DNA of 64,000 bases, taken from the NCBI RefSeq assembly GCF_058153355.1, contig NZ_CM177019.1; one strand, given 5' to 3'. Under the pieces are notes generated by a model, which was not told where the DNA came from, did no database searches, and saw only the letters and a program-made list of their open reading frames with translations. Shown one piece after another: positions 4,514 to 11,708 of the stretch (the stretch's first letter is position 1; the number at the start of each line of letters is the position of its first letter). The position numbers and the translations under genes are program-made.

Positions 4514-6067
4514 TTACTTGATATCTTTCACGCGCATACCGTTGATCTGTTCATCCGTGATGGTGTTACCCGCTTTAAAGTAATCAACCACCGCGTGATA
4601 AACGTAATAACCGCCCGTCGTATTGCGCGCTTTACCCTCGGTAAACGCGGTAAAACCATCTCCACCATCAGCAAGGAAACTCTGAGTGGCAATGTGGTAA
4701 ACCGTCGCATCTTCAATCGGTTTGCCATTCAAAGTCAGTGAGATAACCCGCTGACCAACCGGCTTGCTGCTGTCGTACTTCATTTCCAGGCCTTTCGATA
4801 CCTGTAAAACGCCATTACTTAAACTTGCGCCGTGTTCCATCAAACTGCGTAATTGTTTACCCGTGAGTTCCATCGTCACCAGTTCGTTGGGGAACGGGAA
4901 GGTACTGATGACGCCACCCATCGTAATTGCACCCGCCGGGATCTCATTGCGGATACCGCCAGAGTTGGTTAACGCCAACTGGGTATTTTTACCCGCCGCT
5001 GCCAGTAAAGCATCTGCCGCCAGGTTCCCGAGAGAAGCCGATTCACCATAGGCACGTTTTAGTTCAACCGGCGATTGCGCCACCGTTTGCTGCACGACTT
5101 CATCCAGCTTTTTATTCCAACTATCAATCACCTGTTTTGTTTGCGGATCGGGCTTCCACTCGTCGGCGTAAAGGGTTTTAAGCTCGAAGTTTTTCACCGT
5201 AAAAGTGTGCGGCTTCTCTTTGTAGTCCAGTACCAGTTTACCCACATCAATCCCACCGCTGTCAGTGGAGAGGATGAGCGTATTGCCGACTTTAATCGGT
5301 TCCGGCGTACCCACATGTGCATGCCCGGTGATCAAAATATCCAGCCCTTTCACCTGACTTGCCGTCTGAATATCTTTATCCAGTGCGCGGCGCACATCTG
5401 TGCCCCCCATACTGGACTGGCGGGCCGGAACACCTTCGTGAATCAGCGCAACGGTCAAATCAACCTTGCCTTTGAGTTCATCGATATAACGTTGTAGCCA
5501 TTTAATTTCATCACGCGCCTCAATACCCACTCGCGTTGCCGCAGATACCGTATCATTAAAGGCAAATACACCGTGCAAACCAATCACGCCAATTTTCACG
5601 CCGTCTTTTTCAATGATGGTATAGGGCTTATCCCAGAATGATTTACTGCTGTTCTGATAAAAAACATTACCCTGCACAATCGGGAATTTTGCCTGACTCA
5701 ACTGTAATAACGTATTGTCCCAGCCGTGATCAAATTCATGATTACCTATAGTGGCCGCATCGAACGGCATGGTATTCATAATATCGATAATCGCCTTGCC
5801 TTTAGTCAGGCTGCTGATATACGGCCCGGTAAAATAGTCACCCGCATCAAAAAACCAGGTCGCTTTGTTTTTAGCTTTTTCTTGTTTAACAAGCGTAGTG
5901 ATATTTGCCCAGCCGCCAATATCTCGTTTACCGTCAGCAATCCACGGCACTTTATAAGGCTCTACATGTGCATGGAGGTCGTTGGTATAAATGATGGTGA
6001 CATCTTTGGCGCAAGCCCAAAACGGCAGTGTTAATGCGATACCCGCAGCAAGCATTTTAATTTTCAT
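4514..6067 (-). CDS. secreted bifunctional metallophosphatase/5'-nucleotidase-family protein (UshA/CpdB-like), paralog 1
   Basis: N-terminal signal peptide ([20 protein letters not shown]). Metallophosphoesterase motifs NDLHAH, DAGDYF, GNHEFD, GHAH, followed by a 5'-nucleotidase C-terminal-like half. ATG 6067 follows GGAAGGGA; the ORF-track start 6073 is TTG. Confidence 0.85.
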
Positions 6068-6199
6068 AAACAATCCCTTCCAGTGAGATAAAGGATTGCT
6101 ACATTACGTTCTGAAAGGCTTTTTTATGTGAGAATACTCACATCCAGAGGCGATAACTGTAGGACAAAATCAACGACCTTATGAAATCGTTGGTGATAT

Positions 6200-7327
6200 A
6201 TGTCAAATCTGTTTGCGATTAATGTCTGTAAAACGTTCGGTTGTCGAAATTTGGGATTGGCCTCATCGGAAGATTACAGTTGGCCAGACTATAAACTGGG
6301 TTTTCCGGCACTGCACTGCCAGGCATGCGGAAGTTACCCCCCTTTGTTTGATGAACAACAATTTCGTGACTGGTTGTCAGTTCACATGACTGCGTGTGCC
6401 ATAGAAACAGGGCATTTTTGTCCATCATGCTATTGTAAAGAAAAGATTTTTTATGGCCACAACCCGCAGGGAACACAACGCGTTCAATGCCGTTCATGCA
6501 AAAAAGTCTGGACTCCGAAACAGCAGCCAGCAAGAGAAATTACGTATCCCCAGTCCATTGAAACCGTTCAACTGTTCATGCCCTTTCAAGGAGCCAGCGC
6601 AGTACAAAAGCTCTATGTTTTAGTCAGTCTTGACGCCACTCGTGGCAACATCCTTCATCTCTCCACGAATTATACGCAACATCAGACAGGAGACAGTCTG
6701 CGGTACAGTTACAGAGGCAATACAGAACCAACTGAGCACCATAGCGATATTGTGCAGAGGGTAGATATGCGTGAAGCGCAATTCTTGCGCCGGAGCCAGT
6801 TCGATGAAATTCAGTATGGCAGTGCTGTGCTCAAGCGCAACGGCAAGGGAGCCATACTACGCCCGGTTATCACGGCACACGGGCATTTCAGAATACTGAA
6901 AATCCGCTTTCCACATGTCAAAACGCATATCATTTCACACGAATGTTTTCTGAGAGGCGCAATTATTACAGCCTGGGCAGATCAGTTCCGCCAACAACAA
7001 GGCGAACTTTGGTTCGTAGAAGAAGAAATCAGCGACCGTAACGCTGATATTCCCTGGCATTTTCAGGGAACGACATACCATGGTTGGTGGCAAAATCAGT
7101 GGCAACGCTGGGGGCAGGGGAATAACAGCAAGATGGTCTGCCTGCTCACAGGAGTCTCCTTAGAAAGGGGCGCAAATGTTTCTCTGGCAACCAGTCGTTG
7201 CTTTATCACATGGCTGACAGACCAACACGACTTTACCCAAAGCGCGTTATTATCCGCAGGTCGCGTAACGAAAATGCTGACCTCACTGGCGTTAAAATAC
7301 AATGAATCGCTCAATCCATCTTGTTAG
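6200..7327 (+). CDS. hypothetical Cys-rich protein (zinc-ribbon-like N-terminus, W/Q-rich C-terminus)
   Basis: 375-aa ORF with CxxC pairs (CQACGS...CPSCYC...CRSCKK). No family I can assign with confidence. Flanked by AT-rich DNA and sits between nucleotidase paralogs. Confidence 0.5.
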   Translation: MSNLFAINVCKTFGCRNLGLASSEDYSWPDYKLGFPALHCQACGSYPPLFDEQQFRDWLSVHMTACAIETGHFCPSCYCKEKIFYGHNPQGTQRVQCRSCKKVWTPKQQPAREITYPQSIETVQLFMPFQGASAVQKLYVLVSLDATRGNILHLSTNYTQHQTGDSLRYSYRGNTEPTEHHSDIVQRVDMREAQFLRRSQFDEIQYGSAVLKRNGKGAILRPVITAHGHFRILKIRFPHVKTHIISHECFLRGAIITAWADQFRQQQGELWFVEEEISDRNADIPWHFQGTTYHGWWQNQWQRWGQGNNSKMVCLLTGVSLERGANVSLATSRCFITWLTDQHDFTQSALLSAGRVTKMLTSLALKYNESLNPSC

Positions 7328-7556
7328 TCAATACACTCGACAAACGACCATAAATTAATGGGATCACTATTTCTCATTTAATTAAATATATGAATGTATG
7401 ACTGAAAAATATAATCACAGTCAATGTTTAATTAATAACATTATTTGTTACTAAGATCACATAATACTTTCCTGACCTATGCTTACATAAAAATAAGACA
7501 CGGAGTTCCTTTTATTTAAATAATTCAACCAATGTAACAACCCCTATCAAGGAGGG

Positions 7557-9110
7557 ATGATGAGAACTGTATTTACGACTTTATCAGTCATATTCAGCGT
7601 GATGTTTTCTCACAGTATACTAGCTCAGGACGTTACTATTTATTATACGAATGATATTCACGCACATGTCAATCCGGCAAAAATTCCCGCTGTTGATAAG
7701 AACAGACTTGTAGGTGGTATGGCTAATATTGCAGGCATCGTTAATGAAGCGAAGAAAAAAAACAAAGATGTCTTTTTCTTTGATGCAGGCGACTATTTTA
7801 CCGGTCCGTATATCAGTACCCTGACCAAAGGTGAAGCTATTATTGATATCATGAACACCATGCCCTTTGATGCGGTATCCGTTGGTAATCACGAGTTCGA
7901 TCACGGCGTGCCCAATATGGTATCTCAGTTATCAAAAGCAAAATTCCCCATTCTGCTGGGAAATATTTACTACACCGATACAAATAAACCAGTTTGGGAT
8001 CATCCGTGGACCATTATCGAAAAAGATGGTTTAAAGATTGGTGTGATTGGATTGCATGGTGCATTCGCTTTCTATGATACAGTCGCGGCAAAAGCACGTG
8101 AAGGCGTAGAAGCCAGAGACGAAATTAAATATTTAAATAAAGCACTTGCAGAATTAAAAGGTAAAGTCGACATTACCGTTTTGCTAATTCACGAAGGTGT
8201 TCCGGCGCGTCAATCAAGCTTTGGTAGTAAAGATGTGGAGCGGCTACTACAGGCAGATATTGAGACAGCTAAAAAAGTGAATGGTGTTGATGTCTTAATT
8301 ACCGGTCACGCACATGTCGGAACACCGCAACCAATAAAAGTTAATAACACATTAATTGTATCTACCGATGCATACGGCACCGACATCGGAAAACTTGTGC
8401 TTGATTACAATCCGAAAACGAAGAAAATTGATAGTTATAATGGTGAGTTAATCACCATCTTCGCAGATCAATTTAAACCTGACACCATCGTTCAAAATAC
8501 TATCGATAAATGGAGTGCAAAGCTTAACAAAATAACACAGGAAGTTGTCGGCCATTCTCCCGTAGTTTTAACACGTGAGTATGGCAGTTCTTCTTCTACC
8601 GGTAACCTTATTCTTGATGCAATGATGGAAAAAACACCAGATGCCATTGCCGGATTTCAAAATAGCGGTGGGATGCGAGCTGATTTTCCTAAAGGTGATA
8701 TCACGCTGGGAGATGTTATTAGCACATTCCCCTTTAATAATGACCTCATCGAGATGGATTTGACGGGCCGCGATCTCAAATCGTTGATGACGCATGCAAC
8801 CAATCTAACTAACGGTGTGTTACAGGTTTCAAAAAGCGTTGCGGTTGTCTATGACAGCAAAAAACCACTGAACCAACGGTTAATCTCTTTCACCATTAAC
8901 GGCAAACCCGTGGAAGATAATCAAACATATCGTATTGTCACGCACTCCTTTTGTGCCAGTGGTGGTGACGGTTTTGAAGCATTTTTGAATGGAAAAAATG
9001 TGAAGACGATACCGGGAACAACCTCGGCGGAATCTATCATCGATTATTTCAAAAATCATAAACCTGTCACCCCAGACTTAACTAAACGAGTAATGGACGT
9101 CGCCAAATAA
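7557..9110 (+). CDS. secreted bifunctional metallophosphatase/5'-nucleotidase-family protein, paralog 2
   Basis: AAGGAGGG immediately upstream (ATG 7557 or 7560). Signal peptide, then NDIHAH, DAGDYF, GNHEFD, GHAH motifs; colinear with paralogs 1 and 3. Confidence 0.85.
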   Translation: MMRTVFTTLSVIFSVMFSHSILAQDVTIYYTNDIHAHVNPAKIPAVDKNRLVGGMANIAGIVNEAKKKNKDVFFFDAGDYFTGPYISTLTKGEAIIDIMNTMPFDAVSVGNHEFDHGVPNMVSQLSKAKFPILLGNIYYTDTNKPVWDHPWTIIEKDGLKIGVIGLHGAFAFYDTVAAKAREGVEARDEIKYLNKALAELKGKVDITVLLIHEGVPARQSSFGSKDVERLLQADIETAKKVNGVDVLITGHAHVGTPQPIKVNNTLIVSTDAYGTDIGKLVLDYNPKTKKIDSYNGELITIFADQFKPDTIVQNTIDKWSAKLNKITQEVVGHSPVVLTREYGSSSSTGNLILDAMMEKTPDAIAGFQNSGGMRADFPKGDITLGDVISTFPFNNDLIEMDLTGRDLKSLMTHATNLTNGVLQVSKSVAVVYDSKKPLNQRLISFTINGKPVEDNQTYRIVTHSFCASGGDGFEAFLNGKNVKTIPGTTSAESIIDYFKNHKPVTPDLTKRVMDVAK

Positions 9111-9150
9111 AATATCATTTATCAGTCTATTTATTTAACAAGGAATGCGA

Positions 9151-10770
9151 ATGAAAACAGTGCAGCGTACTTTACTTGCCGCAACATTGCTGACTATTTT
9201 TTCGGTCTCAGCCATGGCGCAGGATGTCACGATTATTTATACCAATGATCTTCACGCTCATGTGGATTCTTATAAAGTGCCGTATATCGCAGACGGAAAA
9301 CGCGACATTGGCGGCTTTGCCAATATATCTACTTTAGTAAAACAAGAGAAAGCGAAAAATAAAGCCACCTTTTATTTTGATGCTGGAGACTATTTCACCG
9401 GCCCTTATATCAGCAGTCTGACAAAGGGCGAAGCAATAATTGACATTATGAATACCATGCCTTTTGACGCAGTATCAATCGGTAATCATGAGTTTGACCA
9501 TGGCTGGGATAATGCCCTGCGACAATTAAGCAAAGCGAATTTTCCTGTTTTATTGGGCAATGTTTATCATAAAGAGAGTGAGAAACCCTTCTGGAACAAG
9601 CCCTACACCATCCTGGAAAAAGATGGCATCAAGATTGGTATTATTGGGCTACACGGCGTATTTGCATTTAATGATACGGTCTCGGAGCTCTCTCTCCAGG
9701 GACTCGATAATGACAATAATAACCGCTTTGATAAATCTTCCGAGACCCTTAAGAATCAGGGGATTGAAGCACGTGATGAAGTGAAGTATTTGCAGCATTA
9801 TATCGACGAGTTACGTGATAAGGTTGACCTCACTGTGGCGCTGGTTCATGAAGGCGTTCCGGCGCGTCAGTCCAGCATTGGCATTACAGATGTTAGACGC
9901 GCTCTTGATAAAGATATTCAAACCGCTAGCAAGGTGAAAGGATTGGATATTCTGATTACCGGGCATGCCCACGTCGGAACGCCAGAACCAATCAAAGTCG
10001 GCAACACCTTAATCCTTTCAACTGATAGTGGCGGTATCGATATTGGTAAATTAGTCCTTGATGTCAACCCTACAGCTCGTACCCATAAAATGAAGAGCTT
10101 TGAGCTGAAAACAGTTTATGCCGATGAATGGATACCCGATCCAACGACACAAAAAGTTATCAATGGCTGGAATAAAAAACTGGCGGATATTGTACGCCAA
10201 CCAGTGGGTGAATCATCGATTGCATTAACTCGCGCCTATGGTGAGTCATCGCAACTAGGCAACCTGTTTACCGATGCAATGCTTGTCGCTGCTCCGACTG
10301 CACAGATTGCATTGATAAACTCCGGCAGCTTACGTGCGGATATAAATGCAGGCACGATTACCTTTGGCGACATTACCAGTACATTCCCCTTCAAGAATGA
10401 ACTTACTGAAATGGATCTCAGCGGTAAGGATCTGCGTAACCTACTGGAACACGGGGCATCGCTTACCAATGGCATCCTGCAAATGTCAAAAGGCGCAGAA
10501 ATGCGCTATACCCCGCAGAAACCAGTAGGTCAGCGCATAGTATCTTTTAAAATTAATGGTGAAGAGATCGTTGATACGAATATTTACCATGTTGCAACAA
10601 CGACTTTCCTTGCACTGGGGGGCGATGGTTTTCTGGCATTCAAAGAAGGGAAAAATGTTCAGGTCCGCGCCGGAAAAAACATGTCCGATGTCGTGATCGA
10701 TTATTTGAAGAAAGGCCACAAGATTACGCCTGCACAGGTAAATGAAATGCGGGTGGACGTTAGCAAATAA
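9151..10770 (+). CDS. secreted bifunctional metallophosphatase/5'-nucleotidase-family protein, paralog 3
   Basis: ATG 9151 lies 7 nt after AAGGA (ORF-track start 9145). Very close to paralog 1 over most of its length but with an extra insert of about 25 aa (ELSLQGLDNDNNNRFDKSSETLKNQG). Followed by a hairpin terminator. Confidence 0.85.
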   Translation: MKTVQRTLLAATLLTIFSVSAMAQDVTIIYTNDLHAHVDSYKVPYIADGKRDIGGFANISTLVKQEKAKNKATFYFDAGDYFTGPYISSLTKGEAIIDIMNTMPFDAVSIGNHEFDHGWDNALRQLSKANFPVLLGNVYHKESEKPFWNKPYTILEKDGIKIGIIGLHGVFAFNDTVSELSLQGLDNDNNNRFDKSSETLKNQGIEARDEVKYLQHYIDELRDKVDLTVALVHEGVPARQSSIGITDVRRALDKDIQTASKVKGLDILITGHAHVGTPEPIKVGNTLILSTDSGGIDIGKLVLDVNPTARTHKMKSFELKTVYADEWIPDPTTQKVINGWNKKLADIVRQPVGESSIALTRAYGESSQLGNLFTDAMLVAAPTAQIALINSGSLRADINAGTITFGDITSTFPFKNELTEMDLSGKDLRNLLEHGASLTNGILQMSKGAEMRYTPQKPVGQRIVSFKINGEEIVDTNIYHVATTTFLALGGDGFLAFKEGKNVQVRAGKNMSDVVIDYLKKGHKITPAQVNEMRVDVSK

Positions 10771-10782
10771 TAAAAAAATTAT

Positions 10783-10816
10783 AATGCCATTCATTCACTG
10801 AATGGCATTATTTTCT
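10783..10816 (+). terminator. rho-independent terminator after nucleotidase paralog 3
   Basis: Palindrome AATGCCATTCA...TGAATGGCATT followed by a T-rich run. Confidence 0.6.
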
Positions 10817-10847
10817 CTAAATCAACAATAGATAATGAGATATATTT

Positions 10848-11708
10848 ATGTGTATAAAAAAGCACGGGATAGCTTTATCGATTCTATTAATACCTTGCAT
10901 TGGAAACGCTCAGGAAATTAAAAGTGAGGAAGGCTGGTTACATCAAAGCTTGAATGTCATTGGTCGCACAGACTCTCGCTTTGGCCCAAGGCTGACTAAC
11001 GACCTCTACCCTGAATATACTGTAGCAGGAAGAAAAGACTGGTTTGATTTTTATGGTTATGTTGATCTACCAAAATTCTTTGGCGTCGGCAGTCACTATG
11101 ATGTTGGGATCTGGGATGAGGGCTCACCACTATTTACGGAAATAGAACCTCGGTTTTCCATTGACAAATTGACCGGATTAAATCTTGCGTTCGGCCCTTT
11201 TAAAGAATGGTTCATTGCAAACAACTATGTCTATGATATGGGTGACAACCAGTCATCCCGGCAAAGTACATGGTATATGGGGCTTGGTACAGATATCGAC
11301 ACGGGTCTACCAATTAAGCTTTCTGCCAATATATACGCCAAGTATCAGTGGCAAAACTATGGTGCCGCTAATGAAAATGAATGGGACGGATATCGATTCA
11401 AAATAAAATATAGCATTCCTCTTACCCATTTATTCGGAGGGCGATTGGTATACAATAGTTTTACTAACTTTGATTTTGGATCCGATCTTGCGGACAAATC
11501 ACACAATAATAAACGAACCAGTAATGCTATTGCTTCAAGCCATATCCTTTCCCTGCTATATGAACACTGGAAATTTGCATTTACACTACGTTATTTTCAC
11601 AACGGTGGACAATGGAATGCTGGGGAGAAAGTTAACTTCGGAGATGGTCCATTTGAATTAAAAAACACAGGATGGGGAACCTATACTACTATTGGTTATC
11701 AATTTTAA
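10848..11708 (+). CDS. Tsx-family nucleoside-specific outer-membrane channel (Tsx paralog)
   Basis: 286-aa ORF with signal peptide and long colinear identity to E. coli Tsx ([70 protein letters not shown], terminal F). Confidence 0.85.

Follow-up and report, generated by a model that had tools for sequence, protein, structure and literature searches.

Domesticated transposases are well known in eukaryotes, and few cases have been documented in bacteria. Here, we describe an open reading frame (ORF) of 375 aa, located at positions 6200-7327 on the plus strand of a 64,000-nucleotide stretch of contig NZ_CM177019.1 from NCBI RefSeq assembly GCF_058153355.1 (the whole of this stretch is referred to as the window). 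Its product very probably represents a large, unnamed protein family that is derived from IS1-type transposases, catalytically dead, immobile, maintained by selection and tied, across Gammaproteobacteria, to genes of nucleotide and nucleoside scavenging.

Among the closest described systems is the insertion sequence IS1, in which InsAB' and InsA (PF03811, PF12759 and PF03400) show the same order of a four-Cys zinc ribbon, a helix-turn-helix (HTH), which in the present family is found in relatives of the ORF product, and an RNase H-like core. InsA is itself a DNA-binding repressor, so that a regulatory role of the ORF would require no new invention of DNA binding. The ORF differs from IS1 by an additional N-terminal zinc ribbon and by a C-terminal beta/helical domain containing the motif GWWxNxW. 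Moreover, it is a single frame without frameshift, is present in single copy, has no terminal repeats and, judged by topology, has lost two Asp positions.

Other descendants of transposon proteins are also instructive. TldR proteins are nuclease-dead, TnpB-derived transcription repressors encoded beside their target genes. Like them, and like the TnpA_REP/RAYT proteins, which are domesticated prokaryotic transposases (PMC8266576), the ORF product is a host-fixed, single-copy transposon-protein descendant. However, its ancestor would be a DDE transposase of the IS1 type, where theirs are HUH or TnpB proteins; it involves no guide RNA, and the function assigned to it below is a proposed one. In eukaryotes, FHY3 and FAR1 are transcription factors that arose from Mutator-like elements. 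They resemble the ORF product as DDE transposases with an N-terminal zinc finger and a degenerate core that were exapted as regulators, but they belong to another kingdom and another transposon superfamily, and the regulatory role of the ORF is a predicted one. Finally, nucleoside catabolism in E. coli and Vibrio is regulated by CytR, DeoR and CRP (PMC3454398). The class of genes concerned is the same (tsx, deo, nupC, udp/purine nucleoside phosphorylase (PNP), nucleotidases) and the ORF promoter carries a perfect CRP site, whereas CytR and DeoR have LacI and DeoR folds, unrelated to the ORF product.

A conserved protein with two zinc ribbons

The ORF starts with an ATG preceded, 6 nt upstream, by GGTGA. 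The window is E. coli DNA; its segment 6000-7600 is 99.8% identical to strains IAI39 and CE10, where the ORF corresponds to WP_000067197.1 ('hypothetical protein'), to which the product of the window is identical or nearly so. The ratio of nonsynonymous to synonymous substitution rates (dN/dS) is 0.11-0.25 between alleles and orthologues, with saturated dS, which indicates purifying selection on the encoded protein. The ORF is a real protein-coding gene under such selection.

An earlier sequence-only reading of the window had delimited the ORF at these positions and had noted in it the Cys pairs CQACGS, CPSCYC and CRSCKK, spaced as in zinc ribbons. Both observations are correct, and CKTFGC constitutes a further pair. 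The Cys residues are at positions 10, 15, 40, 43, 66, 74, 77, 79, 97 and 100, among which C10, C15, C40, C43, C77, C97 and C100 are conserved in at least 90% of 47 homologues, and they form two four-Cys ribbons. Zinc ribbon 1 (C10/C15/C40/C43; 6227-6328, plus strand), whose four Cys all reach this level of conservation, is specific to the family and has no Pfam match. Zinc ribbon 2 (C74/C77/C97/C100; 6419-6499, plus strand) is of the IS1/InsA type according to Pfam, NCBIfam and hhalign. The motif rich in Trp, Gln and His that had also been pointed out is present as YHGWWQNQWQRWGQG at residues 293-307, in a protein with 2.9% Trp, 7.7% Gln and 4.3% His; W297 and W301 are invariant or nearly so across the family. 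The flanks are AT-rich, as described, with a guanine-plus-cytosine (GC) content of 38.9% (6074-6199) and 28.4% (7328-7556) versus 47.5% for the ORF.

The same reading had considered the protein an orphan that matches nothing. This view must be abandoned, since we found 252 homologues at E<=1e-3 with a word-indexed protein search and 123 cluster representatives with an exhaustive search, in addition to the weak and consistent matches to IS1/InsA zinc ribbons detailed below. The homologues come from Citrobacter, Enterobacter, Klebsiella, Kluyvera, Pluralibacter, Salmonella, Serratia, Proteus, Vibrio, Photobacterium and Enterovibrio, with orthologues in Citrobacter, Salmonella, Klebsiella and Enterobacter and relatives at 20-35% identity in Vibrionaceae. 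The suggestion that this might be a truly new protein retains some value, because neither Pfam nor NCBIfam has a model for the core and a literature search (accessions, IS1 domestication, transposase-like nucleoside regulators) found nothing on the family; however, the family is large. Automated annotation labels the relatives 'cytoplasmic protein', 'IS1 family transposase' or 'Transposase and inactivated derivatives'. The first two labels are misleading, and thousands of annotations would be put right if the family were properly defined.

Descent from IS1-type transposases

Taken alone, the ORF product gives only weak matches, all located within residues 74-136. It matches the NCBIfam IS1 transposase model (NF033558) with an E-value of 4e-4 and 20.4 bits, below the cut-off of 100 bits, the IS1_IS1595_Zn/NF050000 zinc domain with an E-value of 0.026 and 15 bits (cut-off, 28), and Pfam Zn_ribbon_InsA (PF03811) over residues 74-101 with an E-value of 0.043. 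In PHROGs, the match is to a transposase and is restricted to the zinc ribbon. Zn_ribbon_InsA is detected at E<=1e-3 in 6 of the 47 full-length relatives that constitute our alignment A1 (best E-value, 5.7e-6). When the family represented by A1 was compared with the IS1 InsAB' fusion by hhalign, the alignment covered the whole of InsA, zinc ribbon and HTH included, with a probability of 96% and an E-value of 2.8e-9. Moreover, the match to the NCBIfam IS1 model continues into the beginning of the catalytic domain in two relatives, P0240 (model positions 6-137 of 199; E 3e-9) and P0140 (1-130 of 199; E 4e-7), and the best relative reaches 37 bits against the cut-off of 100.

Past the HTH, the local alignment of the family with InsAB' ends together with InsA, and a forced global alignment of the cores was without confidence and was discarded. 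The HTH_Tnp_IS1 (PF12759) and DDE_Tnp_IS1 (PF03400) models did not match the ORF product, and PF03400 matched none of the relatives either. A protein search with InsAB' recovered only near-identical IS1 copies, and a diverse IS1 profile could therefore not be built. In alignment A1, the relatives carry 45-90 extra residues between approximately R112 and E113 of the ORF product, and it is to this segment that hhalign aligns the InsA HTH. The segment is deleted from the ORF product and from its close enterobacterial orthologues; the site of the deletion lies at 6524-6553 on the plus strand.

A predicted RNase H-like core with a probably altered catalytic triad

AlphaFold2 applied to alignment A1 produced a compact model of very high confidence (pLDDT 93.8, pTM 0.93). 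Its elements are ordered b1(119-128)-b2-b3-a1-b4(218-220)-a2-b5(242-246)-a3, as in an RNase H-like fold, and this model predicts that the core of the protein (residues 119-258; 6554-6973, plus strand) is RNase H-like, of the DDE transposase/integrase type. It is followed by a C-terminal domain made of a beta-sheet and helices (residues 269-371; 7004-7312, plus strand), which includes GWWxNxW (residues 295-301; 7082-7102), the most conserved motif of the family. Foldseek found no significant match in the PDB, and the weak ones were also RNase H-like proteins. Profile searches and structure prediction, which the sequence-only reading had proposed as a check, have recovered an IS1-type zinc ribbon and a predicted fold, and no model for the core. 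Searches of PDB sequences with the single sequence and with a profile returned only compositional matches to C2H2 zinc fingers and were uninformative on the core.

The catalytic positions of DDE enzymes were placed by topology, with one Asp in the middle of b1, one Asp just past b4 and one Glu at the start of the helix that follows b5. At the first position, the ORF product has T122 (Thr in 36 and Ser in 8 of the 47 relatives). The second corresponds to R221/P222, with Arg or Lys followed by Pro in 43 of the 47 and an acidic residue in none. Only the third, E248, is acidic throughout (Glu in 41/47, Asp in 6/47). By this mapping, the DDE motif that the sequence-only reading had in mind is not kept, and the triad would be lost across the whole family, both Asp being gone and E248 alone retained. 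The transposase descent of the ORF is well supported, and the earlier idea of a degenerate transposase-like protein stands in this respect (InsA-type ribbon, HTH in relatives, RNase H-like fold, both Asp lost).

Further residues are invariant or nearly so, namely R198, H229, H247, R252, W297 and W301, which suggests that a pocket has been retained for a new role. Alternatively, the protein could still be an enzyme, a nuclease, recombinase or hydrolase acting on nucleic acids or nucleotides through a non-canonical site composed of H229, H247, E248, R198 and R252. The conservation of this cluster of polar residues, with an acidic one at the canonical Glu position, and the predicted RNase H-like fold are compatible with such an activity, but both metal-binding Asp positions are lost family-wide according to the topology, and no match to defence-system or nuclease models was obtained (PADLOC, for instance, gave none). 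Moreover, we know of no RNase H-like nuclease that uses this set of residues. We consider a remaining enzymatic function quite unlikely.

Distribution and loss of mobility

By DNA search, 1841 out of the 5426 complete E. coli genomes carry the ORF, with one copy in each. All the E. coli loci inspected have it between metF and metL, with a periplasmic 5'-nucleotidase gene as its divergent neighbour, whereas in K-12 metL and metF are adjacent and the island is absent. Most E. coli carriers have a short form of the island, which consists of the nucleotidase gene and the ORF only. In these strains the ORF and metL are convergent genes on opposite strands, and the last 37 nt of the ORF are shared with the metL 3' end (8095-8131 in both locus L003 and locus L004). 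The window contains a long form, in which two nucleotidase paralogues and tsx are added. The ORF had been described as embedded among the nucleotidase genes, which is true only of the long form; the majority of E. coli carriers, like other genera, have it between a single nucleotidase gene and metL. Citrobacter and another enterobacterial genome carry the short arrangement at the same metF/metL position, and the nucleotidase/ORF pair is therefore the older unit. The island between metL and metF is designated GR 31 in a 2026 paper on the avian pathogenic E. coli strain BEN2908, according to which it is common to all the ExPEC and other model strains compared, including RS218 and UTI89 (PMC12928451). 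That paper treats Tsx and three UshA-like ORFs of the island and makes no mention of the present ORF (PMC12928451).

Three allele classes of the ORF are found in E. coli, with at least 99% identity in 97 genomes, approximately 91.6% in 561 and approximately 76% in 1175. These alleles are very divergent (dS 1.0-1.8 between classes; nucleotide identity down to 63-83% along the ORF in comparisons with L003 and L004). The adjacent nucleotidase gene is 89-97% identical in the same strains, and the break in divergence is situated near the start of the ORF. This divergence could have arisen because the long island came from another species, or because old alleles have been kept.

The position of the ORF is fixed between species, at the metF/metL site in E. 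coli, Citrobacter and the other enterobacterial genome. Among 72,556 plasmid records, only 18 have a match, all of them non-mobilizable and most of them mislabelled chromosomes or chromids. Terminal inverted repeats had been envisaged in the flanks. None of the IS type was convincing around the ORF, where a single AT-rich, imperfect 16-nt inverted pair (6121-6136 and 7478-7493) was detected, and no inverted repeat is common to the intergenic regions of distant loci. An IS-like element, live or recently dead, that had the ORF product as its transposase and had imported or duplicated the nucleotidase genes would explain the homology of this product to IS1-type transposases, the inverted pair and the low GC content of the island. 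However, the left arm of the pair is a conserved CRP site, and the right arm does not exist in the short island form, where the 3' end of the ORF overlaps metL. Together with the single copy per genome, the synteny across genera, the loss of the DDE residues and the purifying selection, this largely refutes the possibility of such an element, to which we give hardly any credit. The proposal that the protein mobilised the nucleotidase copies is not supported either, since the ORF is in single copy and without IS-type terminal repeats, and since the nucleotidase/ORF pair, syntenic across genera, is older than the extra copies.

A functionless, decaying transposase relic, simply carried along with the nucleotidase gene, has also to be considered. 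The HTH has been deleted, the ORF evolves much faster than the neighbouring nucleotidase gene, and annotated truncations of it exist in some records of Salmonella, E. coli and Klebsiella. In contrast, the low dN/dS with saturated dS, the retention of a full-length ORF in E. coli, Citrobacter, Salmonella, Klebsiella and Enterobacter, the residues that are invariant family-wide and the highly confident, compact predicted fold make decay very unlikely. The ORF is present in single copy, syntenic between species, under purifying selection and devoid of mobility features, and on these grounds it is a domesticated transposase. If confirmed, a DDE transposase of the IS1 type that Enterobacterales and Vibrionales retain as a fixed gene of the host, in each case next to genes for the scavenging of nucleotides or nucleosides, would constitute a clear bacterial case of domestication.

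Two basal relatives, the longest and most divergent ones, P0224 (645 aa; L019, 2418-4355) and P0240 (574 aa; L044, 96-1820), contain large insertions and an Asp adjoining the b1 position. Both are found on very short contigs, as repeats often are, and an 18-nt inverted pair surrounds P0224 (2163-2180 and 4577-4594). These two proteins may be closer to a still-mobile ancestor.

Genes of nucleoside scavenging adjoin the ORF and its relatives

The gene neighbourhood is the main functional evidence for a role of the family. Relatives with 20-35% identity, belonging to eight subfamilies, adjoin genes of periplasmic nucleotide and nucleoside scavenging and uptake wherever the flanks are long enough. 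In the enteric clade and for P0140, the gene is divergent from a 5'-nucleotidase gene. In the Vibrio-type subfamily, which was covered by a locus scan (alignment A4), 21 of 23 loci have it directly 3' of a 5'-nucleotidase gene of the same orientation; these loci are distributed among Vibrio, Photobacterium, Enterovibrio, Aliivibrio, Psychromonas and Thaumasiovibrio. Elsewhere the partners vary. P0143 is divergent from genes for a nupC-type transporter and a PNP/UDP phosphorylase, and P0149 is divergent from a TAL-add-deoC-deoA-deoB-deoD operon and adjoins TatD and a Bmp-type ABC nucleoside transporter. The divergent neighbour of P0142 is an operon whose products are a porin, an acid phosphatase resembling AphA and a class II cyclic-nucleotide phosphodiesterase. 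P0158 is the last gene of a tsx-sulfatase-maturase operon, and P0201 follows a PNP/UDP phosphorylase gene at a distance of 41 nt. For P0224 and P0240, the short contigs make the neighbourhood uninformative.

Since the linked genes are different members of one pathway, are often divergently oriented and accompany a protein with DNA-binding-type domains, a transcription regulator is the simplest reading; linkage to such varied genes fits a regulator and not a partner specific to one enzyme. Nevertheless, the ORF product might be a cytoplasmic partner of the nucleotidase, either an inhibitor conferring 'immunity' or an export chaperone, that shields the cytoplasmic nucleotides before the enzyme is secreted. 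The association with a 5'-nucleotidase gene is close and old (it is seen in enterics and in the 21 of 23 loci of Vibrionaceae and related bacteria), the nucleotidases have a signal peptide and the ORF product has none, and the clade of the ORF has lost the HTH. Moreover, an intracellular protein inhibitor of UshA has been documented biochemically, its gene being unassigned (Glaser 1967; Innes, Beacham and Burns 2001, as cited in PMC8475336). However, K-12, from which the classical inhibitor comes, does not possess the ORF, the subfamilies located beside nupC/PNP, the deo operon or PNP alone have no nucleotidase gene nearby, and DNA-binding-type domains are present in the family. An AlphaFold2 prediction of an ORF-linker-nucleotidase fusion, underpowered with its 11 sequence pairs, gave no confident assembly (pTM 0.45, mean pLDDT 70.7). 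A nucleotidase partner is in our opinion unlikely. We see an even chance that the ORF encodes a regulator of the flanking nucleoside-scavenging genes, given the conserved linkage, the domains of DNA-binding type and the conserved sites of the divergent promoter region.

The divergent promoter region contains candidate regulatory sites

The 126-bp divergent region (6074-6199) is highly conserved in six enterobacterial loci (alignment A2). It contains a perfect CRP consensus, TGTGAGAATACTCACA (TGTGA-N6-TCACA; 6127-6142), whose half-sites are kept in all six loci. This site lies midway between the starts of the nucleotidase gene and of the ORF, and a CRP-like site with one mismatch (7446-7461) is found upstream of the second nucleotidase gene. 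The perfect site suggests catabolite control of the island, as in the CytR/CRP nucleoside regulon. Closer to the ORF, a palindrome, CAACGA-N10-TCGTTG (6171-6192), ends 7 nt before the ATG. Its arms are invariant and its spacer variable in the orthologous loci, and it occurs once in the 64-kb window versus 0.05 occurrences expected, which makes it a candidate operator. It is presumably unlike the operators of CytR and DeoR. A function as an RNA hairpin or attenuator was dismissed, its folding energy being no better than that of shuffled sequences (z -0.22), and a terminator-like call on the minus strand proved to be the same palindrome. An Rfam scan of 5900-7700 gave no match.

We propose that the ORF product, a domesticated IS1-type transposase without transposition activity, would regulate the transcription of one or more adjacent nucleotidase genes, and probably also that of the ORF itself. 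Its site of action would be the CRP-dependent divergent promoter region at 6074-6199, where the candidate operator overlaps the promoter or the 5' end of the ORF. The former active-site pocket (R198, H229, H247, E248, R252, W297 and W301) may bind a small-molecule signal, for example a nucleoside or a nucleotide. Extended to Gammaproteobacteria, the proposal becomes a family of domesticated IS1-type transposases acting as nucleoside- or nucleotide-responsive transcription factors, in which the zinc ribbons, with or without the HTH, would have exchanged transposon ends for operators of scavenging genes as their binding sites, while the dead DDE pocket and GWWxNxW would form the ligand sensor. 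This general form is tentative, and we would rather doubt it than assume it.

Several observations weigh against regulation by the ORF product as proposed. The InsA-like HTH is deleted in the clade of the ORF, and DNA binding by InsA of IS1 needs the HTH together with the zinc finger. DNA binding by the ORF product would have to rest, in consequence of this deletion, on the two zinc ribbons and on the basic core (isoelectric point of residues 111-265, 9.8). A second copy of the palindrome was not found at the other promoters of the island, and sequences with up to three mismatches occur at the level of chance (32 found, 31.5 expected). Furthermore, a position weight matrix built from a conserved Vibrio promoter block (see below) had no match in the island promoters of the window. 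Finally, the mapping of the catalytic positions relies on the topology of predicted secondary structure and not on a residue-level superposition.

The Vibrio block was identified at the nucleotidase promoters of Vibrionaceae (L013, L021-L043) as ACCAAC[A/T]CA-N4-G[G/A][A/T]AAC, approximately 125-150 nt upstream of the ATG. In some species a LacI-type palindrome, GCAAACG[A/T]TTGC, comes next; a CRP box and a -10 element lie further downstream. To our knowledge, no known regulator site matches this block. It shares CCAAC with the terminal repeat of IS1 and with the other strand of the enteric palindrome arm, which may be due to chance.

If the ORF product does regulate these genes, a classical regulon comprising tsx, deo, nupC and periplasmic nucleotidases would have an unrecognised regulator besides CRP, CytR and DeoR. 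It would also provide a DDE-transposase counterpart of the TnpB-derived TldR repressors.

Other genes of the island

The conserved partner of the ORF is the divergent periplasmic 5'-nucleotidase gene at 4514-6073 on the minus strand, whose product belongs to the UshA/CpdB superfamily and is not a UshA equivalog. In the long form, the ORF is followed on the plus strand (7557-11708) by two nucleotidase paralogues (7557-9110 and 9145-10770) and tsx (10848-11708). The three nucleotidases of the island (within 4514-11708) share 54-66% identity with each other and fall below all NCBIfam equivalog cut-offs, and they are thus neither UshA nor CpdB. The last three genes have a lower GC content (40-44%), and the tsx gene among them is a paralogue.

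To the left of the nucleotidase gene, the segment 441-4304 encodes a MocR/PdxR-like pyridoxal phosphate-dependent regulator, an alanine-racemase-like protein and a paralogue of serine hydroxymethyltransferase. This block occupies the place of metF in other strains and was found in 3 of the 5426 complete E. coli genomes. In IAI39, the tsx gene of the island (L001, 13850-14695) is annotated as a pseudogene and its product is missing the C-terminus. In a table of PMC10454023, IAI39 is one of the few E. coli genomes that have no ushA-like gene, and the island nucleotidases may substitute for UshA in this strain.

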